In this document: piece by piece, positions 3,528 to 31,054 of the stretch | How positions within the stretch are numbered: the stretch's first letter is position 1 | How the letters are laid out: the number at the start of each line of letters is the position of its first letter | Origin: Propionibacterium ruminifibrarum | GTDB taxonomy: Bacteria; Actinomycetota; Actinomycetes; Propionibacteriales; Propionibacteriaceae | Reading direction: 5' to 3' | DNA length: 32,000 bases | Assembly: GCF_900289195.1 (NCBI RefSeq) | Contig: NZ_OMOH01000002.1 | Span: 211,206 to 243,205, forward strand | Notes under the pieces: generated by a model | The model's database searches: none | What the model was told of the DNA's origin: nothing | What the model saw: the letters and a program-made list of their open reading frames with translations, nothing else | Program-made: the position numbers and the translations under genes

Positions 3528-3531
3528 GGGG

Positions 3532-4893
3532 TCAGCCGATCCGGGTGACGATGTCGCCGGCATTGCAGAAGACGATGTCCTCGACGCCCTGGACGGGCCC
3601 GATCTTCGTCCGGATGGTCTCGCTCGGGGACTGGCGGAAGGCCAGCACGCAGTCGGGCGAGCCGCCCGAGATGGTGATGGGCCCGATGTAGCAGTCCAGG
3701 ATGTTCGGGGTCGCGGACACGACGGCGCCCTCGTAGCCGCCGCTGTTCCCGGCGAAGTTGCACCCGGTGATGGTGTGTCCTGCGATGTACCCGCTCGAGA
3801 TGGCGTCGGAGGGCATCGCCCGGGCGAAGTCGTCGCCGTCCTGGTCCAGGTAGGCGATGCGCAGGTCGGAGCTGTCGGCGAACTCGTTGCCGAACTTGTT
3901 GGCGTCCACGAGCAGGCCCGAACCGGCGTTCACGGCCTTGTCGCCAGGCACGATCCACACCGCGACCCGGTTGGACCCCGAGCTGGTCTGGACGAAGTCG
4001 TTGTTCTGGATGTGCGCGTTGTTCCCGCCGCGACCCAGCTTGATGTGCACGCGGTTGTTGACGAAGGCGTTGTCCGAGATCGTCGTGCCGTCCGTCAGGC
4101 CCGGCAGGGCGACGGCGATCGAGTTCTCGGAGCCGGCCGCCGAGAAGTAGTTCTGGGTGATCTTCCAGTAGGGCATGTCCGAGGAGGCATGGCAGATCGC
4201 GTTCTCCTCGTAGCCGACGAAACGGCAGTTGCGCACGACGTGCATGGTCGTCACGTTCGCGCCCCGGTACCGGTTGCGGATGACGGCCCGCCCGCCGGTG
4301 AAGCTGATGCCCTCCACGAACAGCGAGCCCCACTGCTGGTCGGAGTCGATGAGGTAGTCCGCGTCGATGGTGATGAAGGTGCGGCCGGCGCCCAGGCCGC
4401 GCAGCACCGGCGACGACACGTCGATGCCGGAGCCCCGGTAGACGAAGGCGCCCTCGCCGAGGGTCAGTCCCTCGCGCACCGCACGCTCGATGGTCTCGGT
4501 GTCGTCGACGCCGGTGGCCGTCAGCCCCTCGCCGGTCACCGGGGCGTACTCGGGTTCGTCGGGCGCCCCCGGCGTCGTGGCCGGTTCCGACGACTCGGTG
4601 GCCTCGGCGCTCTGCTCGCCGTCGGGCCGGGCATCGGAGCCGCCCGGCTCGGGCGCATCCGTGCCCGTTGCGGGAGCCGACTGCTCGATGCCGGCCGACT
4701 CCTGGCCGGCGGGCGTCGTGGCGCCCGAGGCGGACAGCCCGGGCACGCCGCCGGGAGCGGACGATCCAGGCGGGGCGGTTCCTTCACCCGTGCCCGAACG
4801 GGCCGGCGAGTTCTGGGTGCCGCAGCCGGTCGTACCGAGAGCGACGGCACCGGCCGCCCCGGCTCCGAGGAAGAATCGTCGAGAAGTCTTCAT
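3532..4893 (-). CDS. secreted right-handed beta-helix (pectin-lyase-fold) protein with a Tat signal and lipobox-like Cys; WcaM-like architecture
   Basis: The N-terminus 'MKTSRRFFLGAGAAGAVALGTTGC' carries a twin-arginine motif, an h-region and a Cys. About 110 aa of Pro/Ser/Gly/Glu/Thr-rich linker follow. After that come repetitive N/G/V/I-rich coils ('VRNCRFVG', 'ISDNAFVNNRVHI', 'HIQNNDFV', 'ITGCNFAGN') typical of parallel beta-helix repeats. The start is ATGA-coupled to the upstream gene (4890-4893). Confidence 0.6.
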   Translation of the reverse strand: MKTSRRFFLGAGAAGAVALGTTGCGTQNSPARSGTGEGTAPPGSSAPGGVPGLSASGATTPAGQESAGIEQSAPATGTDAPEPGGSDARPDGEQSAEATESSEPATTPGAPDEPEYAPVTGEGLTATGVDDTETIERAVREGLTLGEGAFVYRGSGIDVSSPVLRGLGAGRTFITIDADYLIDSDQQWGSLFVEGISFTGGRAVIRNRYRGANVTTMHVVRNCRFVGYEENAICHASSDMPYWKITQNYFSAAGSENSIAVALPGLTDGTTISDNAFVNNRVHIKLGRGGNNAHIQNNDFVQTSSGSNRVAVWIVPGDKAVNAGSGLLVDANKFGNEFADSSDLRIAYLDQDGDDFARAMPSDAISSGYIAGHTITGCNFAGNSGGYEGAVVSATPNILDCYIGPITISGGSPDCVLAFRQSPSETIRTKIGPVQGVEDIVFCNAGDIVTRIG

Positions 4894-5582
4894 GAGAGTG
4901 TCACAACCTCCTGGTGGTCTGTCGGGTTGTCTGGGAGCGGGCCGCGGCGGGGCTGGGAGACGTCCGGCCCGCCGTGCCGGACGGATTCTGCGAGCGAGGC
5001 GATGACGGCGCCGAGGACGAGACCGGCGAGCAGACCGACGAGGCCATCGGTCACGGGATCGGCACTGGTCTCGGTGACCGCGTCTGCGCCGTCCTGGATG
5101 GTGACCGTCTTGAGCGCCGGGTCGCCCGAGCTCTGCTTCATGCCGGAGTCGATGATCTCCTCGCCGAGCACCTCGACGGTGGTGTTGGCCAGTTCAACGG
5201 CCCGGTCCGGGTCGTCGGCGGTGGCGGTGACCTCGACGATCGAGGTGTTCAGCGGGACGGTGGCGCTGAGCCGCCCGGCCAGGTCGGCGGCGGGCTGGTG
5301 CAGGCCGAGACGGTCGTTGACCTCGTTGAGGACGACCCCTGAGGTGGCCAGCGCCGAGTAGGTGCCCATCGAGTTGGAGATCATGGTGGGCACCGTGGAC
5401 TGGTAGGTCTGGTCTGCGCCCTCGGCCGGGTCGGCGGCACCGACCAGCACGGAGGCGGTCGAGGAGTAGCTGGGGGTGCTCAGTGCGGCCCGGCCGGCAC
5501 CGACGAGCGCCCCCAGGATCGCGATGACGAGGACGATCCACCAGTACACGCGCAGGGCGTGGAGGATTCGCGGGGTCTTCAC
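4890..5582 (-). CDS. Wzz/PCP-type polysaccharide co-polymerase (chain-length determinant) without a kinase domain
   Basis: GTG start at 5582 is preceded by AAGGAG. The topology is an N-terminal TM ('WWIVLVIAILGALVG'), an extracytoplasmic segment of roughly 130 aa and a C-terminal TM ('GLVGLLAGLVLGAVIA'). No Walker-type BY-kinase domain is present. Confidence 0.55.
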   Translation of the reverse strand: MKTPRILHALRVYWWIVLVIAILGALVGAGRAALSTPSYSSTASVLVGAADPAEGADQTYQSTVPTMISNSMGTYSALATSGVVLNEVNDRLGLHQPAADLAGRLSATVPLNTSIVEVTATADDPDRAVELANTTVEVLGEEIIDSGMKQSSGDPALKTVTIQDGADAVTETSADPVTDGLVGLLAGLVLGAVIASLAESVRHGGPDVSQPRRGPLPDNPTDHQEVVTLS

Positions 5583-5619
5583 TGTTCGGCTCCTTCGGTC
5601 GTGTGGCGGAGAGCGCGCA

Positions 5620-6210
5620 TCACCGGCACTCCCCCATGGCGATGGCCTTGATGAAGGCGAGGCCCTGGTAGGCGAACTGGTAGGCCCAGCCCAGGGGCGT
5701 CATGGCCGCGTCGTAGGACCAGACGGTGACCGGTCCCCCCGCACACTGGCCCATGACGTAGCGGGTCCGGCTCACGTGGGGACGGGTCGTCAGCACGATG
5801 ACCCGGTCCCAGCCCCGCTCGCCGCGCCAGCGCGCCAGCTGTGCCGCCTCGCCCCTCGTCGTGGAGGGATCGGGCTCGAAGCAGGTCACCGGATAGGGGT
5901 GCTCCTCGGCGCAGAACGAGGTGCTCGGCTCGGGCCGGAACACCGAGCCGAGCACCGGGGTGGACACGACCAGCTCGTCGGCGACACCGTCGTTCATGAG
6001 CTGCAGGGCGTAGGCGACACGGCCGCTGTCGTGCGGGCCCAGGACGAACAGCACGTCCGCATGGCCGGGCGCCGTCTCATGGCGGGGGAAGGCGACGAGA
6101 CGGATGTCGAGAACGCCCAGGACGAGTACGAGGACGACGACCAGGAGCCACAGAACCCGGCCGAGGCGTCCCGGCCCCCGGCCTCCCGGCCTGCTGCGCT
6201 GTCCGCTCAT
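5620..6210 (-). CDS. DUF218 / YdcF-ElyC-like membrane-anchored protein
   Basis: An N-terminal TM ('VLWLLVVVLVLVLGVL') is followed by a small Rossmann-like domain ('ADVLFVLGPHD...DELVVS...RVIVLTTRPHVSRT'). The start ATG 6210 is ATGA-coupled to the flippase stop (6207-6210). Confidence 0.5.
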   Translation of the reverse strand: MSGQRSRPGGRGPGRLGRVLWLLVVVLVLVLGVLDIRLVAFPRHETAPGHADVLFVLGPHDSGRVAYALQLMNDGVADELVVSTPVLGSVFRPEPSTSFCAEEHPYPVTCFEPDPSTTRGEAAQLARWRGERGWDRVIVLTTRPHVSRTRYVMGQCAGGPVTVWSYDAAMTPLGWAYQFAYQGLAFIKAIAMGECR

Positions 6211-7445
6211 GATCGCGGCACCTCCGCGGCGGGTTCCTCGCCGGCTCCGGCGATGTCGGGACGCACGCCCACGTACTCGTCGAGGATGCGTACGAGCATC
6301 GAGACGACCACACCGATCAGGGCGCCCGCAGCGCCCCAGACATGGACGCCGGCCGCGACCATGGCGGTGGCCAGCAGGCCGCTGGCCACGTTGGCGCGGG
6401 TGATGCGGCGCAGCCGGCCGAAGGCGGTCAGGACGGCGCGGCTGAGGACCGTCTCGTAGGTGCCGAGTGCCACGAACAGGGCCATGAGCACGGTGATGAG
6501 GGCGTCCGGGCGGATCACCCCGTCACCGAGGTAGTCGGTGAGGAACGGCCCGAGAATGATGACGGCGACGAGGATGAGTGCGCCCATCGGGATCATGGCG
6601 AGCAGGGCCCGGCGTCCGCGACTGCGCCGGTCCCCGCGCGGCACCCAGCCCTGCATGACCGTGGACAGCGGGGTGAGGGCCACCGTGATCTGGCGCTGCA
6701 CCCTGTCGACGAAGGCGAACATCGGACGGGCCGCCGGGTTGACGAACGAGACGATCACCATCGGCAGCGACAGGACGACGGCGTTCGTGATCGACGCCGC
6801 CACACCGTCGAACTTCTCGCGCAGCACGACATGGACCGGGCGCACCGCACGCGCGACGGCGCCCTCACGGCGCAGCCTGGCCAGGATGTGGACGGTGCTG
6901 AACACGACGGCCGCGGCGATCCCCAGGCACTGGCAGCTCGTGCCGACGACGGCGCTGGCGCCGGAAGTGTTCATGACGAACCAGCCGGTCATCGTGCCGG
7001 CGACCCGCGGAAGGGTCTCGACCAGGAGGAACCAGTAGGGCGCCATGATGCCCACGAAGTACCACTGGCCGCTCATGCCGACGAGGGCCTGGGCGAGAGC
7101 GCCGATCGCGCCGAAGACGCGGAGTCCGGGACCGGCGACGACGGCGCCGATGAGGCAGCAGGCCAGGCAGACCGGCAGACACAGGAACAGGCGGGCACGC
7201 ATCGCCTCGACGTACTCGGCGCGGCGCCCGTCGGCATCGGCGCGGGCGATGATCGCCGGCCCGGCCATGCCCCAGCCGTAGCCGATGACGACGGCACCGA
7301 CCGCCCCGATGACCTGACCCGCGCTGAGGGCGCCGTAGGCCACGTCCCCAGAAGCCCGGATAAGAGCAGGGATGACCATGAGGGATGCCAGCGCCAACAG
7401 GATCATCGACAGCCCGTAGCCGATGGCCTTGGATGCACCTCGCAT
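6207..7445 (-). CDS. Wzx-like (MOP superfamily) polysaccharide flippase
   Basis: ATG at 7445 is preceded by GAGGAG. The 412-aa protein is made almost entirely of TM helices. Its N-terminus 'SKAIGYGLSMILLALASLMVIPALIRA' is typical of polysaccharide-biosynthesis/flippase proteins. It is the first gene of the leftward operon. Confidence 0.6.
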   Translation of the reverse strand: MRGASKAIGYGLSMILLALASLMVIPALIRASGDVAYGALSAGQVIGAVGAVVIGYGWGMAGPAIIARADADGRRAEYVEAMRARLFLCLPVCLACCLIGAVVAGPGLRVFGAIGALAQALVGMSGQWYFVGIMAPYWFLLVETLPRVAGTMTGWFVMNTSGASAVVGTSCQCLGIAAAVVFSTVHILARLRREGAVARAVRPVHVVLREKFDGVAASITNAVVLSLPMVIVSFVNPAARPMFAFVDRVQRQITVALTPLSTVMQGWVPRGDRRSRGRRALLAMIPMGALILVAVIILGPFLTDYLGDGVIRPDALITVLMALFVALGTYETVLSRAVLTAFGRLRRITRANVASGLLATAMVAAGVHVWGAAGALIGVVVSMLVRILDEYVGVRPDIAGAGEEPAAEVPRS

Positions 7446-7690
7446 GCGGGAACTCCTCGCCCAGCTGCGCTCACCGACGCGATCAGGGGGTGGTAGGGGA
7501 TGGAATCAGGGGTGAGATCGGACAGCGCCCGGGGACCATTGAGAGGTGGCCCGGGAACGATCCGTGCGCCATGTTAGCGCCTCTATTTCTTAGAAAATCA
7601 TATGTACTGCATGCATTCGACAACGCAACCTGAGAAGGCTGTGTAAAACCATTGAGTGCATGGGCCGAGCCGAGGAGTCACCCCGCCATC
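7446..7690. promoter_or_regulatory. divergent promoter region of the two EPS operons, containing the only AT-rich island in the window
   Basis: This non-coding gap lies between the divergent starts at 7445 (-) and 7691 (+). Segment 7571-7660 is conspicuously AT-rich ('ctctatttcttagaaaatcatatgtactgcatgcattcgac...gtgtaaaaccattgag'). It includes the 8-bp palindrome TGCATGCA at 7608-7615. No promoter hexamers could be assigned with confidence. Confidence 0.45.
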
Positions 7691-8257
7691 ATGACCGACC
7701 ACACCGATCACGCCGTCGCGCCGCCCCGCCACAGACTCGCCGAGTTCACCGGGCGAGGTTACGACAAGGGACGCGGAAGGCTCGTGTGCGCCGCGTGGGT
7801 GCTTCTCGCCGAGCCCATCCAGCGATCGGTGCTCGTCCCTCCCCGGCTGCGCACGCGCCTGCTGCGCGCCTTCGGCGCGAGGATCGGACGCGGCACGCTG
7901 ATCCGGCACGGCGTCCGCATCCACTGGCCGTGGAAGCTCACCGTCGGGCGTGACTGCTGGATCGGTGTCGGCGCACAACTACTCGACCTGGACCGCATCG
8001 TCATCGGCGACGACGTGTGCATCAGCCAGCAGGCCATGCTGTGCACCGCCTCGCACGACGCCGACGATCCCCGCTTCGAGATCCAGCTGGGGCCCATCAC
8101 CGTGGGCTCGGGAAGCTGGATCGCCACCCGTGCCACCGTGCTGCGCGGGGTCACCGTCGGCGAGGATGTCGTGGTGGGTGCGACCGCCCTGGTGACCAGG
8201 GACGTCCCAGACCGCACGAGGGTCCTGCCCCCCAGGCCGGAGGAGAAACCCCGGTGA
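7691..8257 (+). CDS. WcaF-like hexapeptide-repeat acetyltransferase
   Basis: ORF 7652..8257 begins with TTG. The preferred start is ATG 7691 (MTDHTDH...), with GAGGAG at 7672-7677. 'FGARIGRGTLIRHGVRIHWPWKLTVGRDCWIGVGAQLLDLDRIVIGDDVCISQQAMLCTASHD...ITVGSGSWIATRATVLRGVTVGEDVVVGATALVTRDVP' matches the WcaF-type colanic acid acetyltransferase layout. Confidence 0.7.
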   Translation: MTDHTDHAVAPPRHRLAEFTGRGYDKGRGRLVCAAWVLLAEPIQRSVLVPPRLRTRLLRAFGARIGRGTLIRHGVRIHWPWKLTVGRDCWIGVGAQLLDLDRIVIGDDVCISQQAMLCTASHDADDPRFEIQLGPITVGSGSWIATRATVLRGVTVGEDVVVGATALVTRDVPDRTRVLPPRPEEKPR

Positions 8258-10644
8258 GGATCCTGCAGATCGTCGCGGCAGTCAGTCCCGACAACGTCTA
8301 CGGCGGCCCCACGACCGTCGCCGTCAACCAGTGCCGTGCCCTGGCCGCAGCCGGTCACGAGGTGACGCTGGCCGCCATCGGCCTCGGCTTCGACGGCGAC
8401 CTGCCCGGCAGCTGGGAGGGCGTGCCCGTCCGGCTCTTCCCCGGCCGCAGGGTGATCCCGGGGGCCGGTTTCGCGGGCCTGACCAGCCCGGCCCTGCTCC
8501 GCTGGCTCACCCGGCACGCCCACGCATTCGACGTCGTCCACGTTCACCTGGCCCGTGACCTCGTCACGTTGCCCGCCGCCAGGATCGCCCAGCGCGCCGG
8601 GGTGCCGGTCTACGCCATGACGCACGGCATGATCGACGCCTCGGACAATCCGCTGGCCGCTCCCCTCGACGCGGCCATGACGGCACGGGTGCTGCGGAAC
8701 TGCGTCCGGGTCTTCCACCTCACCCGGCGCGAGCACGACGACCTTCGGTCACTGTTCGGCGATGGCCTGCGCCTCGCCGAGTTGCACAACGGCGTTCTCG
8801 TACCGGACCGTCCCCCCGAGCGCGATCCTCAGGCCGCGCCGACGGTCCTGTACCTGGCCCGCGTGCAGGAACGCAAGCGCCCCGGCACCTTCGTCGAGAT
8901 GGCCCGACGCCTGGCCGATGAATTCCCCACCGCCCGTTTCGTCATGATCGGCCCCGACGAGGGCCTCGGGGCCGAGCTGCGGTCGAAGATCGCCACGGCC
9001 GGGCTCGGCGACCGCCTGGTCTGGAAGGGACCGGCGACACACGCCGAGGGCATCCGCGCGATGGCCGAGTCCGACGTCTACGTGCTGCCCTCGGTCGACG
9101 AGCCCTATCCGATGAGCGTCCTCGAGGCCATGAGCCAGGGCCTGCCCGTCGTGCTGACCGACAGCTGCGGCCTGGCGCCGGTCGTCGCGCAGCACGACGC
9201 GGGCATCGTCACCGACGCCTCGGCCGCGCAGGTCACCTCCGCCGTCCGTGCGCTGCTCGCCGATCCGGCCGAACGCAGGGCCGCGGGGGAACGCGCCCAT
9301 GCCACGGCCCGCGACGAGTTCGGCATGGCGGCCATCGCCCAGCAGCTCGTCGACGCCTACTCGCTGGGCGCCCCGGACGCCGGGCGGTCCCCCGCCGCCG
9401 GGCCCGACACGGGTCGGCGTCCCGGACCGCGGAGAGTGCTGTTCGTCGGTATCAACTACGCCCCCGAGAGCACCGGTATCGCCCCCTACACCACGGGCAT
9501 GGCCGAACGGCTGCTCTCGGCGGGCCACCGGGTGCGGGTCATCACCGGGGTGCCCCACTACCCCTCGTGGTCGAACTTCACCGGGATGAGGGGGCTGCGC
9601 CGGCGCGAGCGCGTGCACGGTGTCAGCGTGCAGCGCATACGCCACTACATCGGTTCGGGCGGCCATGGACTGGGCCGCATCGGGCAGGAACTCAGCTTCG
9701 GCGCCGGTGCGGTCACCAGTTCATGGCGGGGTGCCGACGCCGTCGTCGCGGTGAGCCCGGCCCTGCTCGCCACGGCCTGCGTCGTGGCCCGCGCCAGGGC
9801 AGGCGGCAGGCCGGTGGGCGTGTGGGTGCAGGACCTCTACTCCTCCGGCGCGGCCGAGATCGAGAGGGCCGGGGTCGTCTCGCGGCTGCTCACCCGGGTC
9901 GAGTCCTGGGTGCTCGGCCATGCCGACGGCGTGCTCGTCATCCACTCGCGCTTCCGGGATCACGTCGTGAACGTGCTGGGCGTCGATCCCGACAGGGTCG
10001 CCGTGTGCCGCAACTGGTCCCACGTGGACACCGACCGGCACGACGAGGAACTGGCCGCCGCGTTGCGCCTCAAGTACTTCGGCGACGCCCCGCTCGTGGC
10101 CCTGCACACCGGGAACATGGGCGCCAAGCAGGGCCTGGAGACCCTGGTCGACACGGCCCGGTACGCCGAGCGGGCCGGTTCGCGCACGATCATCGCCCTC
10201 GTCGGCGACGGCTCGCGCCGGGAGGCGCTCATGGACTACGGCGCCGGTGCGCGGAACCTCGTCTTCGTGCCCTCACTGCCCGACGAGGAGTACCGCGCGA
10301 TCCTGTCGGCCGCCGACGTACTCGTCGTCAACGAGAAACCCGGGTTGCGCGAGATGGCGGTGCCCAGCAAGCTCACCACCTACTTCCGCAGCGGCAAGCC
10401 CGTTGTCGCGGCGACCGAGTCCGACTCGGCCACGGCCGACGAGATGGCCGCCGCCGGGGCCGGTCGGGTCGTCCCCCCGGCCGATCCCGCGGCCCTGCTC
10501 GCGGCGATCGAACAGGCTGCCGCCGACCCGGCGGGCTGCCGGGAGGCCGCCCGCAGCGCACAGCGTTTCGTCCACGACAGACTCACGGTCGAGGCAGCAG
10601 TCACGACCATGCGCGACTGGTTGTCCCAGATGACGAGTCGCTGA
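8254..10644 (+). CDS. fused bifunctional glycosyltransferase with two complete GT4 (GT-B) modules; the C-terminal module is WcaI/WbuB-like
   Basis: GTG 8254 is GTGA-coupled to the WcaF-like stop and gives 'MRILQIVAA...'. Module 1 carries EX7E ('EPYPMSVLE'). The linker is '[23 protein letters not shown]'. Module 2 opens with the WcaI-type N-terminus '[45 protein letters not shown]' and contains '...[17 protein letters not shown]'. No in-frame stop occurs anywhere from 8017 to 10644. Confidence 0.7.
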
Positions 10645-10646
10645 CC

Positions 10647-10678
10647 CCGGGCCCCGCTCGGCCCCGTGCGGGGCCCGG
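10647..10678 (+). terminator. GC hairpin (10-bp perfect stem, 12-nt loop) just after the GT stop; possible attenuator or partial terminator ahead of gmd
   Basis: CCGGGCCCCG (10647-10656) pairs with CGGGGCCCGG (10669-10678). The hairpin starts 3 nt after the stop at 10642-10644. No U-tract follows (the next bases are tgaaacaaaccc). Confidence 0.35.
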
Positions 10679-10715
10679 TGAAACAAACCCATATCCCCTA
10701 CCGAAAGTCACCCCC

Positions 10716-11789
10716 ATGGCACACCGCGCATTCATCACCGGTATCACCGGCCAGGACGGCTCCTATCTCGCCGAGTTCCTGCTCTCGAAGGGATACGAGG
10801 TGCACGGGCTCATCCGCCGGTCGTCGAGCTTCAACACGCACCGCATCGACCACCTGTACCGCGACCCGCACGACGAGTCGGCACGTCTGTTCCTGCACTA
10901 CGGGGACCTGTCGGACGGGGCGCGCCTGGTGACCCTGCTGCACGACATCAATCCCGACGAGGTCTACAACCTCGCCGCCCAGTCGCACGTCCGCGTCTCC
11001 TTCGACGAACCCGAGCACACCGCCGACACCACCGGCGTCGGCACGGTCCGCCTGCTCGAGGCAGTGCGCCAGTCGGGCATCGGGGCCCGGTTCTACCAGG
11101 CCTCCACCTCTGAACTGTTCGGTGCGACGCCCCCGCCGCAGAACGAGACCACCCCGATGTACCCGCGTTCGCCCTACGGCGCCGCGAAGATGTACAGCTA
11201 CTGGGTCACCAAGAACTACCGCGAGGCGTACGGCATGTTCGCGGTCAACGGCATCCTGTTCAACCACGAGTCCCCGCGCCGCGGCGGCACCTTCGTGACC
11301 CGCAAGATCACCCGGGCCGCGGCCGCCATCAAGGCCGGCCAGCAGGACGTGCTCTACATGGGCAACATCGACTCGATCCGGGACTGGGGCTACGCCGCCG
11401 AGTACGTCGAGGGCATGTGGCGCATGATGCAGGCCGACGAGCCCGAGGACTTCTGCCTGGCGACCGGCCGGGGCACGACGGTCCGCGAGTTCCTCGACTA
11501 CTCCTTCGGCCACCTCGACCTGGACTGGCGTGACCACGTGCGCTTCGACGAGCGCTATCTGCGCCCCACCGAGGTCGACGCCCTCATCGGCGACCCGACG
11601 AAGGCCCACGACAAACTCGGCTGGCACGCGCAGGTCGACGCCAGGGGTCTGGCCGAGATCATGGTTGACGCGGACGTCCAGATCCTCACCCACCACACCG
11701 ATCCGTGGATCGACGTCCCCCGGACGTCCTGGGCCGACCGGATTCCCCGGGTCGAGGCGACCTCCGAGACGGCGGGGGTGCGGGCATGA
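10716..11789 (+). CDS. gmd: GDP-mannose 4,6-dehydratase
   Basis: ATG 10716 lies inside ORF 9567..11789. '[27 protein letters not shown]...YGDLSD...[10 protein letters not shown]...[11 protein letters not shown]...[11 protein letters not shown]...[22 protein letters not shown]' is near-collinear with E. coli Gmd. Confidence 0.95.
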
Positions 11790-12796
11790 CCGGCGTGGAC
11801 TACACCCCGGCACCGATCGACCGGGACGCGGTCACCTACGTCGCCGGGCACCGGGGCCTGGTCGGCTCGGCGATCTGGCGCCGTCTTGAGCAGGAGGGCT
11901 TCAGCCGCCTGGCCGGCTCGAGCCATGCCGAACTGGACCTGACCGACCGGGACGCGGTCTTCGCCCACTTCGAGGCCGTCGGCCCCCGGTACGTCATCCT
12001 GGCCGCGGCCAAGGTCGGCGGCATCCTGGCCAACGACACCTACCCGGCCGATTTCTGGTCGGTGAACCTGCGCATCCAGACCAACGTCATGGACGCCGCG
12101 CTGGCCTGCGGCACCGAACGCCTGCTGTTCCTCGGCTCCTCGTGCATCTACCCGAAGCTGGCCCCCCAGCCGATCACCGAGGACCGCCTGCTCACCGGTC
12201 ACCTCGAGCCCACCAATGACGCCTACGCGATCGCCAAGATCGCCGGCATCATCGGCGTCCAGGCCGTTCGTCGCCAGTACGGTCTGCCGTGGATCTCGGC
12301 CATGCCGACGAACCTGTACGGTCCCGGGGACAACTTCGCCCTCGTCGGCTCGCACGTGCTGCCCGCGATGATCCGCCGGTACGACGCGGCGGTCGCCGAA
12401 GGGGCCACGCGCATCACGAACTGGGGCACCGGCAGGCCGCGCCGCGAGTTCCTGCACGTGGACGACATGGCCGACGCCTGCCTGTTCCTCCTGGACAACT
12501 ATGACGGCCCGACCCAGGTCAATGTGGGGACCGGCAAGGACTGCACCATCGCTGAACTGGCCGGCCTCGTGGCCGAGGCCACCGGCTACACCGGAGAGGT
12601 CGTCTGGGACACCACCAAGCCCGACGGCACCCCGCAGAAACTGCTCGACGTGAGCCTGCTGACCGGTATGGGCTGGCGGCCCCGCCACGGCCTGCGCGAG
12701 GGCATCGCCGACACGCTCGCCTGGTACCGGGAGCACCGGCAGAGCTTCCGCGACAGCGACACGGAGCAGCCGCGCAGCGGCGAGGGGCACGCGTGA
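11786..12796 (+). CDS. fcl: GDP-L-fucose synthase (GDP-4-keto-6-deoxymannose 3,5-epimerase/4-reductase)
   Basis: ATG 11786 is ATGA-coupled to the gmd stop. '[18 protein letters not shown]...[18 protein letters not shown]...[17 protein letters not shown]...[14 protein letters not shown]...[12 protein letters not shown]...[10 protein letters not shown]...[13 protein letters not shown]' is collinear with E. coli Fcl/WcaG. Confidence 0.93.
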
Positions 12797-14403
12797 TCGG
12801 CGGCCCGTGGGTCGACCAGTACCCGCCGGCGACCGAGACGGTCCTGCCACCGGTCACCGACGACATCGTGAGTCATCTCGGTCTGGAGACGGTCGACCCC
12901 GACCGGATCGCGATGCGCTGCCACGGGCGCACCCTCACCTACGGACGGCTCATCGAGGCTCACCGGCGCGTCGCCGCCGGCCTGGCCGGCGCCGGCCTCG
13001 GGCCCGGGGATCGGGTCGCCGTCATCGCCGGCACCGGGCCCGAGCATCTCATCGCGCTGCTGGCCGCCCTGCGCCTCGGCGCCATCGTCGTCGAGCACGA
13101 CACCGCGGCGACCTCCCACGAGCTGGCCGGCCTGTTCGCCGACCACGGTGCGCGCCTGGCATTCACCGACCCCGAGGTGGCCCCCCGGGTGCCCGGTGAC
13201 GTGCGGACCGTCGTCCTCACCGGGGAGCACCGGGCCGCGCCGGCCCACCCCCCGGGCTCTCCGGTCTGGGCAGATCTGAGCGGGCACGCGCCGCTCGGTG
13301 ACGAGGCACCGCGGCCCGCGCCGCAGGACACCGCGCTGCTGCTGTACACCTCGGGGTCCACCGGCCGGCCCAAGGGGGTGCCGTTCACCCACGCCATGAT
13401 CGGCCATGCGATCGACCAGAACCTCAACTTCTTCCGCATGCAGGGCCGTGGGGACGGCCGTCACTACCTGACGCTGCCGCTCAACCACGTCTTCGCGCTC
13501 GTGGATCAGCTGTTCAGCGCGCTGGCGCGCGCCGTCGAGCTCATCGCCTTCCGCCGGGGCGACATCGACGCCGTCGTGGCGGCCGCTGCGACCCGGCCGC
13601 CACGCAAGCTGGGCACCGTCCCGCCCGTCCTGGACGCCATCGCGGCCGGCGCGGCCAGGGCGGGCGTGCGCTTCGACGACCTCTACGTCGCCACCGGCGG
13701 GCTGCCCCTGACCCGGCGCACCGTCGACGCGTGGCTGCGGATCAGCGACAGCCCGCCCGTCAACGGCTGGGGCATGACCGAGTCCTGCGGCTACGGGCTC
13801 ATGCCCCTGCCCGACCCCGCCCGGGTGCCGGCCGGCAGCTGCGGGGTGCCACTGCCGGACCTCGACGTGCGGGTCTGCGACCCGGCCGATCCCACTCGCG
13901 AACTCGGCGTCGGCGAGACGGGTGAGCTCCAGCTGCGGGGACGCCTGGTCTTCGGCGGCTACTGGAACGACCCGCGGGCCACGGCCGAGGCCTTCACCCG
14001 CGACGGCTTCCTGCGCACGGGTGATCTGGTGAGCATGGACGGGCAGGGATTCTTCTTCTTCCACGGACGCCTCAAGGAGATCATCTCGGTCCAGGGCGAG
14101 AACGTCTCGCCGGTGGAGGTCGAACGAGTGCTCGAGGCCGCGCCGGGCATCGCACGCGCCTTCGTCTACCCCCGCGAGACGACGCCGGGGGTGAACATCC
14201 TCCTGGCCGCCTTCACCGCCGCCCCGGGAACCGCCGCCGACCCGGATGCCGCGCTCGCCCTGTGCGCCGAGCGGCTCGCCCCGTACAAGGTACCCATGCG
14301 CCTGACCCGGGTCGATACGCTGCCGCTGTCCGCCGCCGGAAAGCTGCGGCGCGACGTCGACGGACAGGCCTGGACGCGCGCGCATCGGGTGAGGGGGCAC
14401 TGA
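12793..14403 (+). CDS. adenylate-forming (ANL) enzyme, FadD-like acyl-CoA/acyl-carrier-protein ligase
   Basis: GTG 12793 is GTGA-coupled to the fcl stop. The N-terminus has a FadD-like 'WVDQYPP'. Core motifs are 'LLLYTSGSTGRPKGV', 'GWGMTES', 'GELQLRG', 'FLRTGDL', 'HGRLKEIISVQGENVSPVEVE' and the C-terminal 'AAGKLRR'. Confidence 0.85.
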   Translation: MIGGPWVDQYPPATETVLPPVTDDIVSHLGLETVDPDRIAMRCHGRTLTYGRLIEAHRRVAAGLAGAGLGPGDRVAVIAGTGPEHLIALLAALRLGAIVVEHDTAATSHELAGLFADHGARLAFTDPEVAPRVPGDVRTVVLTGEHRAAPAHPPGSPVWADLSGHAPLGDEAPRPAPQDTALLLYTSGSTGRPKGVPFTHAMIGHAIDQNLNFFRMQGRGDGRHYLTLPLNHVFALVDQLFSALARAVELIAFRRGDIDAVVAAAATRPPRKLGTVPPVLDAIAAGAARAGVRFDDLYVATGGLPLTRRTVDAWLRISDSPPVNGWGMTESCGYGLMPLPDPARVPAGSCGVPLPDLDVRVCDPADPTRELGVGETGELQLRGRLVFGGYWNDPRATAEAFTRDGFLRTGDLVSMDGQGFFFFHGRLKEIISVQGENVSPVEVERVLEAAPGIARAFVYPRETTPGVNILLAAFTAAPGTAADPDAALALCAERLAPYKVPMRLTRVDTLPLSAAGKLRRDVDGQAWTRAHRVRGH

Positions 14404-14404
14404 G

Positions 14405-14839
14405 ATGGGCGTCGGGATCGACATGGTCGACGTCGCCGAGGTGACGAGCGCCCTCGAACGCCACGGCAGGCACTACCTCGACCGGGTCTACGCACCGGCT
14501 GAGCAGGCCGAGACGGCCTCGATGAGTCCGCGCCGGATGCGCGAGTACCTGGCCGGGCGGTTCGCCGCGAAGGAGGCCGTGCTCAAGGCGCTGCGGCCGC
14601 CGCCCTGTGCGGCGGCCGCGCTGACGCAGATCGTGGTGACCGGGGCCGGGGGTGCTCCCCGCGTCGAGCTCGCCGGGAACCTGCTCGCGTGGTGGCGCTC
14701 GTCGGGGCACGGACCGGTGGACGTGTCCATCAGCCACACCAGGGTCATGGCGGTGGCCGTGGCCCGGACGGATCAGGGCCCGGGGCCCGGCACACAGGAA
14801 GGGGACGATGATGAGCAGGACGGAGCAGACGGTGCGTGA
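14405..14839 (+). CDS. acpS: holo-[acyl-carrier-protein] synthase (AcpS-type 4'-phosphopantetheinyl transferase)
   Basis: The ATG lies 1 nt after the ANL stop. 'GVGIDMVDVAEV...', 'LAGRFAAKEAVLKAL' and 'VSISHT' are the classic AcpS motifs. The acidic/Gly tail overlaps the next gene by 32 nt. Confidence 0.85.
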   Translation: MGVGIDMVDVAEVTSALERHGRHYLDRVYAPAEQAETASMSPRRMREYLAGRFAAKEAVLKALRPPPCAAAALTQIVVTGAGGAPRVELAGNLLAWWRSSGHGPVDVSISHTRVMAVAVARTDQGPGPGTQEGDDDEQDGADGA

Positions 14840-15053
14840 GGCGCTCGCCGAGGTGGGCAACCTGGACGAGGACGCGATGAGCCTCGCCGCGGACGCCTCG
14901 CTGGCCGACGCGGGACTGACCTCGCATGCGGCGGTCAGCCTGCTGCTCGAGATCGAGGACCGGCTCGGCATCGAGTTCCCACCCGAGCAGATGACGCCGG
15001 AGACCATGGCCTCGATCCGTGCGATCGAGGCGGGGATCGAGGCGCTGTCATGA
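14808..15053 (+). CDS. small stand-alone carrier protein (ACP/PCP-like, 81 aa)
   Basis: ATG 14808 lies inside ORF 14652..15053 and is preceded by AGGAAGGGGA. The four-helix-bundle-like sequence has its candidate phosphopantetheine site at 'ADAGLTSHAAVSLLLEIEDRLGIEF' (Ser codon 14922..14924). It sits between a PPTase and a carrier-protein ligase. Confidence 0.75.
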   Translation: MMSRTEQTVREALAEVGNLDEDAMSLAADASLADAGLTSHAAVSLLLEIEDRLGIEFPPEQMTPETMASIRAIEAGIEALS

Positions 15054-15955
15054 GCCTGGCCGCCAGTGAGACCACGCTGCGTGACGCGCTGCGCGACGCA
15101 GGGCACCTGCTTCCCGGCCCCCGCCCAGGGATCGACGGGCACGGCCCGGAGTTCGAGGCCGTCGTCGACGGGATCTGGCGGGCCTACTTCGACAGGGCGC
15201 CCGCCGGGACCCCGGTCATGGCCTTCGGCCCGCTCATCGACGCGGCCCAGTTCACCGCCACGGACTACCCCCGTTCTTTCCCGCACCTGGTCGGTGAGGT
15301 CGAGGTCTTCGACGGCGGTGACGCCGAGCACGGCGCCCTCATCCGGGACATCGATGCCGGGGCCGACTGGACGACGCACTTCGTCCCCAGTGGCATGACG
15401 TTCGTCCCGGCCACCTGCGAGAACGTCTACCCGCGCTACGCCGGCACGCTTGAGGGGCCGACGATCGTCGCCTGCCGCAGCTGGTGCTTCCGCCACGAGC
15501 CCAGCGACGACCCGATGCGCATGGTGAGTTTCCGCATCTGCGAGTACGTCTACCTGGGCTCTGCCGATGGCGCCGAGTCGTTCCGCACCGACTGGCTGGG
15601 GCTGCTCCTGGAGTTCTTCACCGATCTCGGCCTGGAGGTCGCCAGCGACCGCGCGAACGACCCCTTCTTCGGCCGGATCGGCGCGATGCTGGCGGCCAAC
15701 CAACGTCGGTCGGGCATGAAGAACGAGATCAGCATCGCCCTCTACCCGGACCGCCGTACCGCTATCTCGAGCGTGAACACGCACCGCACGCACTTCGCCG
15801 ACAGCTTCGGCATCCGGCAGGCCGGCGGTGAACCCGCCCACACCGCCTGCGCCGGCTTCGGCATCGAACGGGTCGCCATCGCCCTGTTCGCCGCCCACGG
15901 CATGACCACCGCCGACTGGCCGGAGCCGGTGCGTGCGGTCCTGCGGCTGCCCTGA
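15050..15955 (+). CDS. amino acid:[carrier protein] ligase, a truncated class II aminoacyl-tRNA synthetase (atypical SerRS-like catalytic core) homologue
   Basis: The start is ATGA-coupled to the carrier protein gene. The protein is 301 aa with no tRNA-binding domain. It has a motif 2-like 'CFRHEPS' and a motif 3-like 'CAGFGIERVAIALF'. A Cys123/Glu165/Cys267 trio sits in 'PATCEN', 'ICEYV' and 'TACAGFG', consistent with the Cys-Glu-Cys zinc site of this family. Assignment is by motif and context only. Confidence 0.7.
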   Translation: MSLAASETTLRDALRDAGHLLPGPRPGIDGHGPEFEAVVDGIWRAYFDRAPAGTPVMAFGPLIDAAQFTATDYPRSFPHLVGEVEVFDGGDAEHGALIRDIDAGADWTTHFVPSGMTFVPATCENVYPRYAGTLEGPTIVACRSWCFRHEPSDDPMRMVSFRICEYVYLGSADGAESFRTDWLGLLLEFFTDLGLEVASDRANDPFFGRIGAMLAANQRRSGMKNEISIALYPDRRTAISSVNTHRTHFADSFGIRQAGGEPAHTACAGFGIERVAIALFAAHGMTTADWPEPVRAVLRLP

Positions 15956-15982
15956 GAGCCCGGCCGGCCTCGTCGGGCTCTC
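15954..15982. terminator. bidirectional hairpin between the convergent EPS operon and hrpA
   Basis: GAGAGCCCG (15954-15962) pairs with CGGGCTCTC (15974-15982) across an 11-nt GC-rich loop. The stem overlaps both stop codons (TGA 15953-15955 on +, TGA 15983-15981 on -). Confidence 0.5.
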
Positions 15983-18900
15983 ATCCGGCGGCCCGGGCGA
16001 TGGCCCGGCGGATGCGTTTGGGTGAGACCGTCTGGCTGGTGCCCAGGCGCTGGGCGAACAGCTGCACGCGGTACTCCTCGAGCAGGAAACCGATGTCGTC
16101 GACCTGCCGGCTCAGCGGGCCGGGCGGCTGGGCATCGCACAGCTCGTCGTACTCCGCGGCGAGTTCGTCGAACCCGCCCATCAGCTCCTCGTCGCGGGCC
16201 GGATCGGACCGTGCCGCGTCAAGGCGCATCGAGGCGGCCTGCAGGTAGCGCGGCAGGTGCTGGTACCAGGGGTCGGCGGTGAACGAGATGAAGCCGGGGA
16301 ACACCAGGTTCTCCAGCTGGGCCGTCACGTCCTCGGCGGTGGCGGCCGACACGCCGGGCGCATCGGCGCGGATCTGCCGGGCCCAGCCGAGCGCCGCGGA
16401 GGCCGTGGCGACGACGTCGCGCATGACGTCAGCCTGCTCGGCGCGCACCTGGGTCGCCAGCGCGGCGAACCGCTCCTCGTCACGCACCTGGGCCGGGTCG
16501 GCGTGCGCCCGGGCGGCCCGGTCGACGGCCTTGAGCCGGGCATCGGCGAGCAGCTCGGGCACGCTCTCGTAGGGATTGTCGCCGAGCCAGAGCCGCTCCT
16601 GCCGACCGAGATGGGAGACCACCCAGCGCGTCGGGTCGGGGTTGACCAGGACGAGAAGCCGCCTGATCCCGCGCGCGTGCGAGTCCGCGGCGGCCTGCGG
16701 CGTGTCGGCCAGGAAGAGGGCGACGCTGTCGCCGTCATCGCGCAGGGCCGGGTACCCGACGGCCTGCAGGCCGCCGCGGCGGATCGTCCTGGTCGGCTCG
16801 ATCGTCCCGAACACCCAGCTCGTGGCGCCGGTCCTGGCGGTGTCGCGCGAGGCCCTGGTGAGCGTGCTGGAGACGCGCTCGGCCAACTGCCGCTGCAGCT
16901 CGGCGAGGTCCTTGCCCTGCCCGGTGACCCGGTCCTTCTCGACGACCTCGAAGCGCACCCGCAGGTGGTGTGGGACGGCGTCGGGGCGCCACTGGTCGGG
17001 TTCGACCACGATGCCGGTCAGGGCGCGCAGGGCCCGGCCGAGTTCATCGTGGAGGAAGCGCGAGTGGTCGGCCCCATTGGCCTTGAGCCAGCGCAGCGCG
17101 GCGCGGGCGTGGTCGGGGGCCGGGACGAAACCGGTGCGCACCGCCTTGGGCAGCGCGCGGATCAGCTCGGTGGCGAGTTCGGTGCGCAGGCCCGGCACCT
17201 GCCAGCTGAAGGGTTCGGGGCGCAGCTGGTTGAGTTCGGCGAGCCTCACCCGGACCGTCACGCCGTCGGCGCCCGATCCGGGGTCGAAGACATAGCCGAC
17301 GGGCAGGCGCAGCTCGCCGACCCGCCAGCTGTCCGGGAAGGCGCTGGTGTCGACGTCGTCCGCGTCCTCGCGCACCAGGTCGTCCATCGACAGGTCGAGC
17401 AGGTGCTGGTCCGGTTCGCGTGACCACCAGCTGTCGAAGGTGGCGCCCGAGTGGACGGTGGCCGGGATGCGGGCGTCGTAGAACTCGAAGATCGTCTGGT
17501 CGTCGACGAGCAGGTCGCGGCGCCTGGTGCGCTCCTCGAGATCGGCGACCTCGTCCCGCATCCGCTGGTTGTGCTCGATGAAGTCGTGCCGGACCCGGCC
17601 GCCGGTGGGCTGCCAGCCGTTCTCGACGAGCCCGGTGCGGATGAAGATCTCGCGGGCCTCGGCTGGGTTGACGCGCCCGTAGTCGACGAGGCGATCGGCG
17701 ACGAGCGGTACACCGTACAGGGTGGCGCGCTGGCTTGCGAGGACGCCTGCCGAACTGCTCGACCAGTGCGGCTCGGCGTAGCCGTACTTGACGAGCGGGC
17801 CGGCGACCGACTCGACCCATTCGGGTTCGATCGCGGCGCAGGTGTGCGCCCACAGGCGGGTCGTCTCGACGAGTTCGACGGCCATGACCAGCGGCGGGTT
17901 CTGCTTGGCCAGCGCCGAGGCGGGGCTGATGGCGAATCGGGTGCCGCGCGCCCCGAGGTACTCGCGGGGGCCGCGGGGTTTGCGTCGGCCTCGGTGCCGG
18001 GCTCCCCTGGTGGTGTTCTCGGCCTCGAGGAGGCCGATGTGCGAGAGCAGGCCCGACAGGACGGATTGCAGGATGGCCTCGGTGCTCCCGGGGCGGTCAT
18101 TGCGCTTCAGGTGCAGGTCGGCGCCGACTCCTGACAGCTGGCTGCGCAGGTCCTGCCATTCGCGGACGCGCAGGTAGTTGATGAACTCGGCGCGGCACAG
18201 GCGGCGGAACTGGTTTCCCGACAGGCGCCTGCGCTGGGCCATCAGATAGCTCCACAGGCGCCAGATGGCCATGACGTCACCGCCCGGGCCGACCGTGACC
18301 GGCTCGTCGAACTCGCCCTCGCGGCCGGTCTGCGGGGTGTAGCGGGCCGGCCGGCCCGGCCCAGGGGCGGGTTCGCCGGTGGGGCCGGTCAGGATGTCGT
18401 CGGTGAGGAAGCGGCGGTGCAGCTGGTCGGCCTGCTGGCGTTTCTCGGCGGGGCGTTCGCGCACGTCCTGGATGGCCAGGGCGGCGGCGATCACCTCGAC
18501 CTCGCGCAGGCAGCCACGGCGGGAGGCCTCGATGAGCATGCGCCCCAGGCGCGGGTCGATGGGCATCTCGGCGAGCCGGTGACCGGTCCTGGTCAGGCGC
18601 GGTGTGCGCCGGTCCGGCCCCTTGAGGGCGCCGAGTTCGCCGAGCAGGCGCAGGCCGTCGGTGACCTGGGCCCGATCGGGGGCCTCGACGAACGGGAAGT
18701 CGTTGATGTCGCCCAGTTCGGCACTGGCCATCTTGAGGATGACCGAGGCCAGGTTGGTGCGCAGGATCTCCGGTTCGGTGAACTCGGGGCGGGTCAGGTA
18801 GTCCTCCTCGGCGTAGAGGCGGACGCAGATGCCGGGCCCGAGCCGCCCGCACCGTCCGGCCCGCTGGTCGGCGCTGGCCCGGCTGACGGGTTCGACGGGC

Positions 18901-30453: not shown

Positions 30454-30583
30454 CGTTCCCTCTCCGTATGGGTTCTCGGGCGATCCGCGCCCGACATGGT
30501 TGTGCTTCACACGTATGTATTCGGTTGTCGTGGCGGAAGGGCGCAGGGGACCTCCGCGGACGGAGTCCCGGTGCGCGTGAGCC

Positions 30584-31054
30584 TCAGCTGCCGGCCGTCT
30601 GCCGCTCCTGCTCGGCGGCCTGCAGCTTGGCGATCTCGGCCAGGAAGTCTTCCACGCACTGGAAGTGCTGGTAGACGCTGGCGAACCGCAGATAGGCAAC
30701 GGGGTCGAGCTCGCTCAACGGCCCGAGAATGGCCACACCCACCTGGTCGGAGGGGATCTCGGCCATGCCGCTGGCCCGCAGCGACTCCTCGACCTGCTGG
30801 CCGAGCCGGGCCAGCTGGGCCTCGGTGACGGGCCTGCCCTTGCAGGCCTTGCGCACCCCGCTGATCACCTTGTCCCGGGTGAAGGGTTCGACGACCCCGG
30901 ACTTCTTCACGACCACGAGCTGCATCCGCTCGATGGTGGTGAAACGCCGCTCACAGGCCAGGCACTGGCGGCGCCGGCGGATGCTCGCACCGCCCTCGGC
31001 GACCCGCGAGTCGAGGACGCGGGAGTCACAGGTGTGGCAGTAGGGACAACGCAT
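30584..31054 (-). CDS. nrdR: transcriptional repressor NrdR
   Basis: ATG 31054 is preceded by AAGGAG. '[42 protein letters not shown]' is the zinc ribbon. An ATP-cone follows ('[28 protein letters not shown]...YLRFASVY'). Confidence 0.95.

Follow-up and report, generated by a model that had tools for sequence, protein, structure and literature searches.

Amino acid:[carrier protein] ligases (aa:CP ligases) have been characterized structurally and kinetically since 2010. The described members are reportedly Bll0957 and Bll6282 of Bradyrhizobium japonicum and Atu2573 of Agrobacterium tumefaciens, from the work of Mocibob and colleagues in 2010 and 2013, with PDB entries 3mey, 3mf1, 4h2s, and 4h2w. 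Characterized aa:CP ligases load Gly or Ala onto the phosphopantetheine of a carrier protein and leave tRNA uncharged (PMC5370406), and they are zinc-dependent dimers (PMC9437257). A 2022 review regards the role that such charging plays in biology as unknown (PMC9437257). The only proposal for that role found in a literature search is a 2010 note added in proof by Iyer and Aravind, wherein the amino acid is ligated to a cell-surface sugar and an Atu2574-type open reading frame (ORF) acts as the ligase (PMC2922099); the idea that aa:CP ligases serve cell-surface glycans is thus already known. Here, a homologue encoded at positions 15050–15955 of a 32,000-nucleotide stretch of Propionibacterium ruminifibrarum DNA (contig NZ_OMOH01000002.1; the window) is compared with these systems. 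The gene most likely encodes a zinc-dependent aa:CP ligase, predicted to consist of a catalytic core derived from methanogen-type seryl-tRNA synthetase (SerRS) with the tRNA-binding domain lost. The full explanation, in which this ligase loads a carrier protein and the aminoacyl group decorates a surface polysaccharide, is considered likely. What is new is that the protein falls in a divergent clade, which recurs in surface-polysaccharide loci and has a simpler gene module of another composition, and that the window also encodes, at 3–1541, a conserved Cys-nucleophile tandem alpha/beta-hydrolase partner.

The ligase, its predicted catalytic residues, and its two closest functional partners are located as follows.

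15050 to 15955, plus strand: aa:CP ligase homologue, 301 residues, a class II aminoacyl-tRNA synthetase (aaRS) catalytic core without a tRNA-binding domain (NF005479, PDB sequence search, AlphaFold2 and Foldseek).
15485 to 15505, plus strand: motif 2 core CFRHEPS, residues 146–152, with R148 and E150 (family alignment; aligned to CFRREPS of Bll0957).
15848 to 15871, plus strand: motif 3 CAGFGIER, residues 267–274, with Cys267 replacing the first Gly (family alignment; Bll0957 and SerRS alignments).
15416 to 15418, 15542 to 15544, and 15848 to 15850, plus strand: codons of the predicted zinc ligands Cys123 (TGC), Glu165 (GAG), and Cys267 (TGC), respectively (sequence and column alignment).
14808 to 15053, plus strand: cognate carrier protein, 81 residues, with a predicted phosphopantetheine site at Ser39 (TCG, 14922–14924) (PF00550, E 1.6e-09; NF005480, E 4.2e-18).
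14405 to 14839, plus strand: AcpS-type 4'-phosphopantetheinyl transferase (PPTase), 144 residues (PF01648, E 9.8e-13; TIGR00556, 67.6 bits against a cutoff of 45.35).

The ligase ORF has a GC content at third codon positions of 0.92 and a codon-position GC pattern typical of real genes, in a window of 70.7% GC. Its top profile match is the NCBIfam model NF005479 (amino acid--[acyl-carrier-protein] ligase; E 3.6e-88), of which it spans positions 17–316 of 318, and the archaeal-type SerRS models PRK00960 (E 1.5e-16) and TIGR00415 (E 1.3e-12) come next. A sequence search of the PDB places the Bll0957 entries 4h2w and 3mey on top (E 1.3e-57 and 6.2e-57), followed by SerRS from M. kandleri (E 5.9e-13) and M. 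barkeri (E 4.9e-04); only the C-terminal catalytic part of the 527-residue SerRS (chain 311–506) aligns to the ligase. An AlphaFold2 model built with 33 homologues reaches a mean predicted local distance difference test score (pLDDT) of 93.3 and a predicted template modeling score (pTM) of 0.90. Its only weak part comprises residues ~201–220, which include a segment exchanged in engineered Bll0957. When compared by Foldseek, the model matches Bll0957 (4h2s_B) with a template modeling (TM) score of 0.93 and a root-mean-square deviation (rmsd) of 1.5 Å over 296 columns, at 38% identity; the PDB title of 4h2s is [quoted passage not shown]. Methanogen-type SerRS is the second-best target (TM 0.81–0.83, or ~0.5 when normalized to the target, and rmsd 2.6–3.7 Å), and the prolyl- and glycyl-tRNA synthetases lie farther away (TM ~0.65, rmsd 3.3–5.3 Å).

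The predicted catalytic residues agree with this assignment. In a 33-sequence family alignment, C123, C146, F147, R148, E150, P151, C267, G269, G271, and R274 are invariant, and E165 is conserved in at least 90%. The three putative zinc ligands occur in the strings PATCEN (from residue 120), ICEYV (from 163), and TACAGFG (from 265). HMMER alignment equates C123, E165, and C267 with Bll0957 chain residues 151, 196, and 299, which are native residues 131, 176, and 279 given a 20-residue tag; this numbering agrees with the Bll0957 zinc ligands, reported by Mocibob in 2010 to be C131, E176, and C279. E165 and C267 correspond to E375 and C481 of the M. barkeri SerRS chain, native E355 and C461 given a 20-residue tag, again in agreement with the ligands of that enzyme, reportedly C306, E355, and C461. 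All three residues align to Cys, Glu, and Cys in M. kandleri SerRS. The substitution of Cys for Gly in motif 3 is shared with Bll0957 (TGCVAFGMDR) and methanogen-type SerRS (TGCAGLGVTR), the counterparts of the motif being GCVAFGMDR in Bll0957, GCAGLGVTR in M. kandleri SerRS, and GCSGVGLER in M. barkeri SerRS.

An earlier note on this DNA, written from the letters and an ORF list, had described the gene as a truncated class II aaRS homologue with a motif 2-like CFRHEPS (fRxE), a motif 3-like GxGxGxxR, and a Cys123/Glu165/Cys267 trio resembling the zinc site of methanogen-type SerRS and aa:CP ligases, and had suggested a profile search and a structural superposition as checks. The truncated homologue is corroborated by a real ORF limited to the catalytic core, with E values of 3.6e-88 to NF005479 and ~1e-57 to Bll0957. 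The profile search returned the amino acid:[acyl-carrier-protein] ligase first and archaeal-type SerRS second, with the generic Pfam core sub-threshold, and the superposition gave TM scores of 0.93 on Bll0957 and 0.81–0.83 on methanogen-type SerRS. The reading of motif 2 stands, its core residues being invariant in the 33 homologues, and so does the trio, whose columns align in both Bll0957 and SerRS. Motif 3 is present as C267-A-G269-F-G271-I-E-R274, but the full GxGxGxxR pattern does not hold because Cys267 fills the first Gly position.

The ligase is thus predicted to possess all defining features of the aa:CP ligase family that can be read from a sequence. It shares with Bll0957, Bll6282, and Atu2573 the fold, the length, the lack of a tRNA-binding domain, motifs 2 and 3, the Cys-Glu-Cys columns, and the type of carrier protein (Atu2571), but differs in its separate neighbor-joining clade, its score below the equivalog cutoff, and the residues flanking its zinc ligands. 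With methanogen-type (type-2) SerRS (M. barkeri, 2cim and 2cj9; M. kandleri, 3w3s), it has the catalytic core and zinc-ligand columns in common, whereas it comprises 301 residues instead of ~500, has no N-terminal tRNA-binding domain, and has its gene coupled to those of a carrier protein and a PPTase. Because it has no tRNA-binding domain, it is not regarded as a SerRS or other tRNA synthetase. In the public record, the protein is WP_119714855.1/SPF67651.1 (exact match, P. ruminifibrarum), annotated "hypothetical protein", and a P. australiense protein falls in the same 90% cluster. Close relatives carry the same annotation or "class-II aminoacyl-tRNA synthetase family protein"; the ligase and these relatives could be renamed.

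The public annotation and the sub-threshold scores to curated models would also suit a class II synthetase remnant that, like HisZ or SLIMP, is catalytically dead or regulatory, or an enzyme that still acts on tRNA. Such a remnant would not be expected to conserve motif 2, motif 3, and all zinc-ligand residues, nor to yield a confident core model near-identical to active Bll0957, nor to show tight gene coupling with a PPTase and a carrier protein of the cognate type. As for tRNA, the 301 residues contain no tRNA-binding domain and match the catalytic part of SerRS alone, and characterized members do not aminoacylate tRNA (PMC5370406). Either form of this explanation is so improbable that it can be nearly discounted.

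The clade of the window ligase departs from other family members beside every zinc ligand and in motif 2. It has C123-E-N where others have C-Y/H-P, W145 before CFRHE, V159 in place of Gln, C267-A-G in place of C-V-G (C-V-A in Bll0957), and a small residue at position 244 (T244) in place of Tyr. Bll0957 has Tyr, Asp, Val, and Tyr at the positions of E124, W145, A268, and T244, respectively. The preference of characterized homologues for Gly or Ala is not transferable to this ligase, since the residues flanking all three zinc ligands differ, and the statement in the earlier note that the activated amino acid cannot be read from the sequence is upheld. Bll0957 is a glycine ligase, Atu2573 is said to prefer alanine, and Ala281 of Bll0957 reportedly affects specificity. 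Gly, Ala, and Ser are the candidate substrates. Because the clade states at E124, W145, A268, and the small residue at 244 are identical to those of M. kandleri SerRS, Ser or Ala would be at least as plausible as Gly, which is a lead rather than a result.

Two close relatives carry further genes beside the ligase. In the 80% relative (locus L001, 11544–15091), four genes lie between the ligase and hrpA, encoding a GHMP-family kinase, an EamA transporter, an SbnA-like pyridoxal phosphate (PLP) enzyme (TIGR03945, E 4e-39), and, with E 5.7e-32, an AlaXM-like editing protein. Of these four, the 75% relative (L007, 1935–2651) has only the AlaX-like gene, and the window has none. In those two organisms, the extra genes could provide an unusual amino acid to the ligase or proofread it. 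AlaX was rejected as a general clue to specificity: the editing gene follows the ligase in the 75–80% relatives only and is found neither in the window nor in the other loci.

The carrier protein is similarly close to described ones. In the PDB, it comes closest to the aminoacyl carrier proteins 4h2w_C and Atu2571 (2jq4), with E values of ~1e-10, and Ser39 aligns to the phosphopantetheine serine (AGLtSHAAV against AGLsSFASV). It is also weakly DltC-like (NF003464, E 1.1e-06; 7r49_H, E 5.5e-04). From these matches, it is the predicted cognate, of aminoacyl-carrier-protein type, encoded at the ligase locus. The PPTase is probably dedicated to this carrier protein. In the window, it sits between the carrier protein gene and an upstream AMP-forming ligase gene, but it is not found there in the closest relatives, L001 (9639–9762) and L007 (482–487), where the spacer measures 5–123 bp. 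The order PPTase, carrier protein, ligase is present in the more distant relatives L008 and L092 and at the start of L005. A fragment upstream in L007 was considered as a PPTase and rejected, as it is the C-terminus of the AMP-ligase.

By analogy with the characterized enzymes, the AcpS-type PPTase (14405–14839) would first convert the 81-residue carrier protein into its holo form at Ser39. The ligase would then bind ATP through motif 2 (R148 and E150) and motif 3 (R274), use a zinc ion coordinated by Cys123, Glu165, and Cys267 to bind a small amino acid through its alpha-amino group, and form the aminoacyl-AMP. Finally, the aminoacyl group would pass to the phosphopantetheine thiol, giving an aminoacyl-S-carrier protein. 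Homology to Bll0957 and Atu2573 makes this chemistry very likely.

The surroundings of the ligase suggest where the aminoacyl group may go, and comprise the following features.

12793 to 14403, plus strand: AMP-forming (ANL-superfamily) acyl ligase, 536 residues (PF00501, E 9.8e-66).
10716 to 12796, plus strand: gmd (10716–11789) and fcl (11786–12796), GDP-L-fucose pathway (TIGR01472, 510.8 bits, above cutoff; NF047922, 430 bits against a cutoff of 500).
8254 to 10644, plus strand: fused double GT4 glycosyltransferase with an HpsP-like half and a WcaI-family half (NF007640, E 3.8e-71; NF038295, E 5e-35; Pfam).
7652 to 8257, plus strand: WcaF-family acetyltransferase (NF007797, E 1.2e-48).
2217 to 7445, minus strand: divergent polysaccharide genes, namely a Wzz/CpsC-type chain-length determinant (4890–5582), a DUF218 protein, a NosD-like beta-helix protein, and two proteins without a family match (PF02706, E 1.3e-08; TIGR01006, E 1.2e-15).
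15953 to 15983, no strand assigned: 12-bp GC-rich hairpin over the stop codons of the ligase and the convergent hrpA (folding free energy −23.3 kcal/mol, z −2.47).
3 to 1541, plus strand: tandem alpha/beta-hydrolase-fold protein, its N-terminus cut by the window edge (27% identity over 505 residues to the partner in L008, E 1e-28).

The genes gmd, fcl, AMP ligase, PPTase, carrier protein, and aa:CP ligase form an unbroken run in which each junction is an overlap or a 1-nt spacer. The overlap is ATGA between gmd and fcl and GTGA between fcl and the AMP-ligase start. Between the carrier protein and the aa:CP ligase, it is again ATGA (ATG 15050–15052, TGA 15051–15053), and the coupling claimed in the earlier note is confirmed, the upstream gene at 14808–15053 being a phosphopantetheine-binding carrier protein (PF00550). 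The note had also called the ligase the last gene of the exopolysaccharide (EPS) operon. This is fair, as neighboring genes from gmd through the ligase all overlap or abut and are followed by the convergent hrpA, with one reservation: the 71 nt that separate the glycosyltransferase gene from gmd (10645–10715) contain a strong GC hairpin at ~10647–10678 (−31.8 kcal/mol, z −1.98), which might act as an attenuator, as an internal terminator, or as a processing site. The hairpin at 15953–15983 is a probable bidirectional terminator without a T tract. A consensus terminator scan did not call it and found no canonical terminator. The hairpins present are GC-rich and have no T tracts, and an Rfam scan of the whole window gave no family at threshold.

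With WcaF, WcaI, Gmd, Fcl, and Wzz, the cluster is, as judged by its predicted products, colanic-acid-like. The gene order of the minus-strand block at 2217–7445 is syntenic in L001. The ORF at 8254–10644 (plus strand) is a single one of 796 residues containing two complete GT4 enzymes, HpsP-like at the N-terminus and WcaI-family at the C-terminus; the same fusion, of 799 residues, occurs in L001. Three proteins on the minus strand are without a significant family match, at 2217–3563 (447 residues), 3532–4893 (452 residues, weakly NosD-like beta-helix), and 6207–7445 (411 residues). A polymerase, a flippase, a transferase, or an alternative acceptor-side enzyme for the aminoacyl group could hide among them. 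Elsewhere in the window, the minus-strand region 27568–31498 contains an NrdR ORF and, downstream of it, a ribonucleotide reductase of class II (B12-dependent) that carries a TSCPD domain. The zinc ribbon of the NrdR ORF begins only at residue 148, and the real start of NrdR probably lies well within the ORF as listed.

Given this setting, the aminoacyl thioester would decorate the fucose-containing surface polysaccharide of the same cluster, most probably by passing onto the active-site Cys of the tandem hydrolase (3–1541) and then onto sugar, and a second acyl group may come from the AMP-forming ligase of the same operon. The structure of the operon and the recurrence of its context make the polysaccharide a possible destination, with a likelihood somewhat short of even.

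The AMP-forming ligase admits a different interpretation of the same genes. Its best PDB matches are FadD13 and the feruloyl-, malonyl-, and oxalyl-CoA ligases, and TIGR03098 (E 3.3e-51) is not its top match. A DltA-like role as a second amino-acid loader was considered unlikely, because the enzyme most resembles CoA ligases for fatty-acyl, aryl, and dicarboxylate substrates and the segment LPLNHVFA reads as acyl-CoA-synthetase-like. The exact public matches of the ANL enzyme and the carrier protein, both from P. ruminifibrarum, are SPF67648.1 and SPF67650.1, respectively. The AMP-ligase, PPTase, carrier protein, and aa:CP ligase might be a self-contained small-molecule cassette, in which a carboxylic acid, fatty or other, is activated by the ANL enzyme and N-acylates the carrier-bound amino acid, a thioesterase frees an N-acyl amino acid, a lipoamino acid, or a short thiotemplated product, and adjacency to polysaccharide genes is incidental or only regulatory. 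One carrier protein and one dedicated PPTase would then be shared by two different adenylating enzymes, the similarity of the ANL enzyme to fatty-acyl and aryl-CoA ligases would be explained, and the tandem hydrolase could equally be the releasing thioesterase. L092, where the partner, PPTase, carrier protein, and ligase stand amid unrelated genes on a 6.5-kb contig without glycosyltransferases, also fits, and Mocibob and colleagues, as quoted in PMC2922099, had originally proposed a link to non-ribosomal peptide synthesis. On the other hand, the AMP-ligase start overlaps the fcl stop in a run unbroken from gmd, the ligase recurs in at least four polysaccharide loci of differing composition, the ANL gene accompanies it in the closest relatives only and so is not a core part, and neither a condensation domain nor any other enzyme that forms amides is present. 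A small-molecule cassette is therefore considered unlikely.

The preferred destination, the polysaccharide, calls for a transferase, and the tandem hydrolase is the candidate that emerges from comparison. Its N-terminal half resembles "hydrolase 2, exosortase A-associated" (hydr2_PEP-like) and its C-terminal half "hydrolase 1" (hydr1_PEP-like). In a profile of 22 members, both halves match solved alpha/beta hydrolases, and Hydrolase_4 is found in 20 of the 22, while the window copy (3–1541) has no Pfam family at threshold. The nucleophile position of the first half is occupied by Arg, in the form G-x-R-x-G in 48 of 55 homologues. The second half has G-x-C-x-G with Cys in all 55 (Cys315 in the 3–1541 translation), and the C-terminal Asp and His are present in 49 and 54 of them. 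A Cys-His-Asp alpha/beta-hydrolase would be well equipped to relay an acyl group received from a phosphopantetheine thioester. That the partner is the transferase for the carrier-bound aminoacyl group is tentatively suggested, at a rather low likelihood; it could instead be a proofreading or releasing thioesterase.

The wider family places the window apart. Neighbors lying no more than 5 kb from the ligase were tallied over 95 copies, of which a few are on near-duplicate contigs. A carrier protein is found near 89 copies, an ACAD-like gene near 75, DUF1839 near 62, a GH2-like gene near 53, a PPTase near 37, and an AMP-binding gene near seven, which are mostly the window and its 80% relative. 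A partner of ~560 residues without a recorded Pfam match lies near 50. The dominant module is [PPTase]-CP-ACAD-ligase-DUF1839-GH2-like-(partner), where CP is the carrier protein. It was observed, with the tandem hydrolase at its end, in L011–L091 (e.g., L012, 8475–16294), from Actinomycetota, Gemmatimonadota, Pseudomonadota, Planctomycetota, Acidobacteriota, and Myxococcota. The neighborhood noticed by Iyer and Aravind appears to be this ACAD-type module, and apart from their 2010 prediction the conserved multi-gene module appears functionally uncharacterized. Some genomes have two paralogous aa:CP ligase systems within ~10 kb, as in L005 (1–1336 and 8517–11907; Arsenicicoccus) and L078 (10001–13620); one is a simple PPTase-CP-ligase beside UDP-glucose dehydrogenase, and the other is CP-ACAD-ligase-DUF1839-GH2-like.

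A scan of reference genomes for the ligase gave at least 600 matching stretches, the best identity being 46% among the matches listed, and the close clade was gathered from the protein database and contig look-ups. In a neighbor-joining tree without support values, Bll0957 falls inside a large ACAD-type clade, and the window ligase falls in a separate clade with Propionibacteriaceae proteins of 75–92%, Nigerium massiliense, and metagenomic proteins. At no more than 46% identity to the reference-genome homologues among the matches listed, the clade is judged divergent. In most loci of the Bll0957 clade, an ACAD-like gene parts the carrier protein from the ligase, whereas the two are directly coupled in the window. 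The window has neither DUF1839 (Atu2574-type) nor the GH2-like glycosidase, and instead carries an ANL ligase and gmd-fcl upstream. By tblastn, no ACAD, DUF1839 (Atu2574-type), or glycosidase gene was found anywhere in the window, and the locus does not belong to the canonical ACAD-type module.

The prevalence of the ACAD-like gene raises another possibility, namely that the aminoacyl-S-carrier protein is a tethered substrate modified on the carrier, as in aminomalonyl-ACP or the oxidation of prolyl-PCP, to give a non-proteinogenic building block. The ACAD-like gene is near the ligase in 75 of the 95 copies and between carrier protein and ligase in most of the family, its product is weakly similar to acyl-ACP and prolyl-PCP dehydrogenases, and genes for a GHMP kinase and an SbnA-like PLP enzyme follow just downstream in the 80% relative. 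Nevertheless, the window and its whole clade are without ACAD, DUF1839, and the glycosidase, and the SbnA-like and kinase genes of the 80% relative are likewise missing from the window. The ANL ligase is the sole possible tailoring enzyme encoded between fcl and hrpA. Modification on the carrier is considered quite improbable here.

Polysaccharide loci, by contrast, are the usual setting of the clade: every context retrieved is without ACAD, DUF1839, and glycosidase, and most are surface-polysaccharide loci. L001–L003 show the same colanic-like cluster, with L001 keeping its order. L008 combines a GT2 gene, a rhamnosyltransferase, Wzy, the partner, PPTase, carrier protein, and ligase, and L004 has Wzy and GT2 genes. 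In L009, just outside the clade, the ligase lies between LytR-CpsA-Psr and a Wzz-kinase with its phosphatase, with a flippase and a GT4 enzyme in the locus. L092 is the bare four-gene module of partner, PPTase, carrier protein, and ligase.

Two further systems resemble this arrangement in part. DltA and DltC D-alanylate teichoic acids, and AlmE, AlmF, and AlmG glycylate Vibrio lipid A. The logic would be the same, although as an analogy only: a dedicated small carrier protein receives a small amino acid from an adenylating enzyme, and the thioester donates it to an envelope glycopolymer. The loader in the window, however, is a class II aaRS core instead of the ANL-superfamily enzyme of Dlt and Alm. 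The ANL enzyme of the window resembles acyl-CoA ligases and not DltA, so the locus does not qualify as a Dlt system. No MBOAT (DltB), DltD, or AlmG-type acyltransferase was detected among the scanned window ORFs. The second is the accessory set of exosortase-A (PEP-CTERM) EPS loci, known only through the NCBIfam models TIGR03098 (acyl-CoA ligase), TIGR03100 (hydrolase 1), and TIGR03101 (hydrolase 2). The window resembles it in having, in or beside an EPS cluster, an ANL ligase, a carrier protein, and a protein with hydrolase 2- and 1-like halves. The window differs in scoring far under the model cutoffs, in its fused hydrolases with a Cys nucleophile, in having no exosortase or PEP-CTERM genes, and in the added aa:CP ligase. 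A Dlt-like envelope decoration built on a class II core, in which Ser, Ala, or Gly is loaded on the carrier protein, taken as a thioester by the Cys hydrolase, and moved to a fucose-containing exopolysaccharide, possibly after N-acylation by the ANL enzyme, is somewhat unlikely.

Several observations weigh against the explanation favored here. As regards the ligase itself, the NF005479 score of 295.6 bits lies below the equivalog cutoff of 357, which is a curation threshold and not a biochemical feature; the shortfall arises because the clade is divergent, and it accounts for the public annotation as "hypothetical protein". The Pfam class II core PF00587 scores 20.9 bits, under its gathering threshold of 29.3, so Pfam alone is not diagnostic and the identification draws on NCBIfam, the PDB sequence search, and the fold comparison. 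That Cys123, Glu165, and Cys267 cluster in three dimensions is inferred from the 1.5 Å superposition and the alignment, which qualifies the predicted site geometry. The activity assigned to the ligase is a predicted one. With the zinc-ligand and motif 2 flanks differing, the substrate and even the efficiency could differ from those of the Gly and Ala enzymes. As regards the destination, no transferase adjoins the ligase, and the candidate hydrolase lies 13.5 kb away, past the divergent operon on the far side of the polysaccharide cluster. The hairpin before gmd may split the glycosyltransferase genes from the transcription unit containing the ligase. No sugar aminotransferase is found in the cluster, which leaves no obvious acceptor for the amide-to-amino-sugar model of Iyer and Aravind. 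L004 and L009 have no carrier protein gene near the ligase. Lastly, the ANL gene stands beside the aa:CP ligase only in the window's close relatives in the 95-copy tally; it is not a core component of these neighborhoods.

Despite these points, the locus is compact and belongs to a culturable genus (P. ruminifibrarum, and also P. australiense), with the ligase, carrier protein, and PPTase translationally coupled to GDP-fucose genes. The complicating ACAD, DUF1839, and glycosidase genes are absent, and the purpose of aa:CP ligases is experimentally tractable here. The comparative work also yields a concrete downstream candidate in the recurrent Cys-nucleophile tandem alpha/beta-hydrolase. Ultimately, if the Dlt-like reading is true, it would assign the first biological function to aa:CP ligases, and the conserved hydrolase would be the missing transferase of the family.

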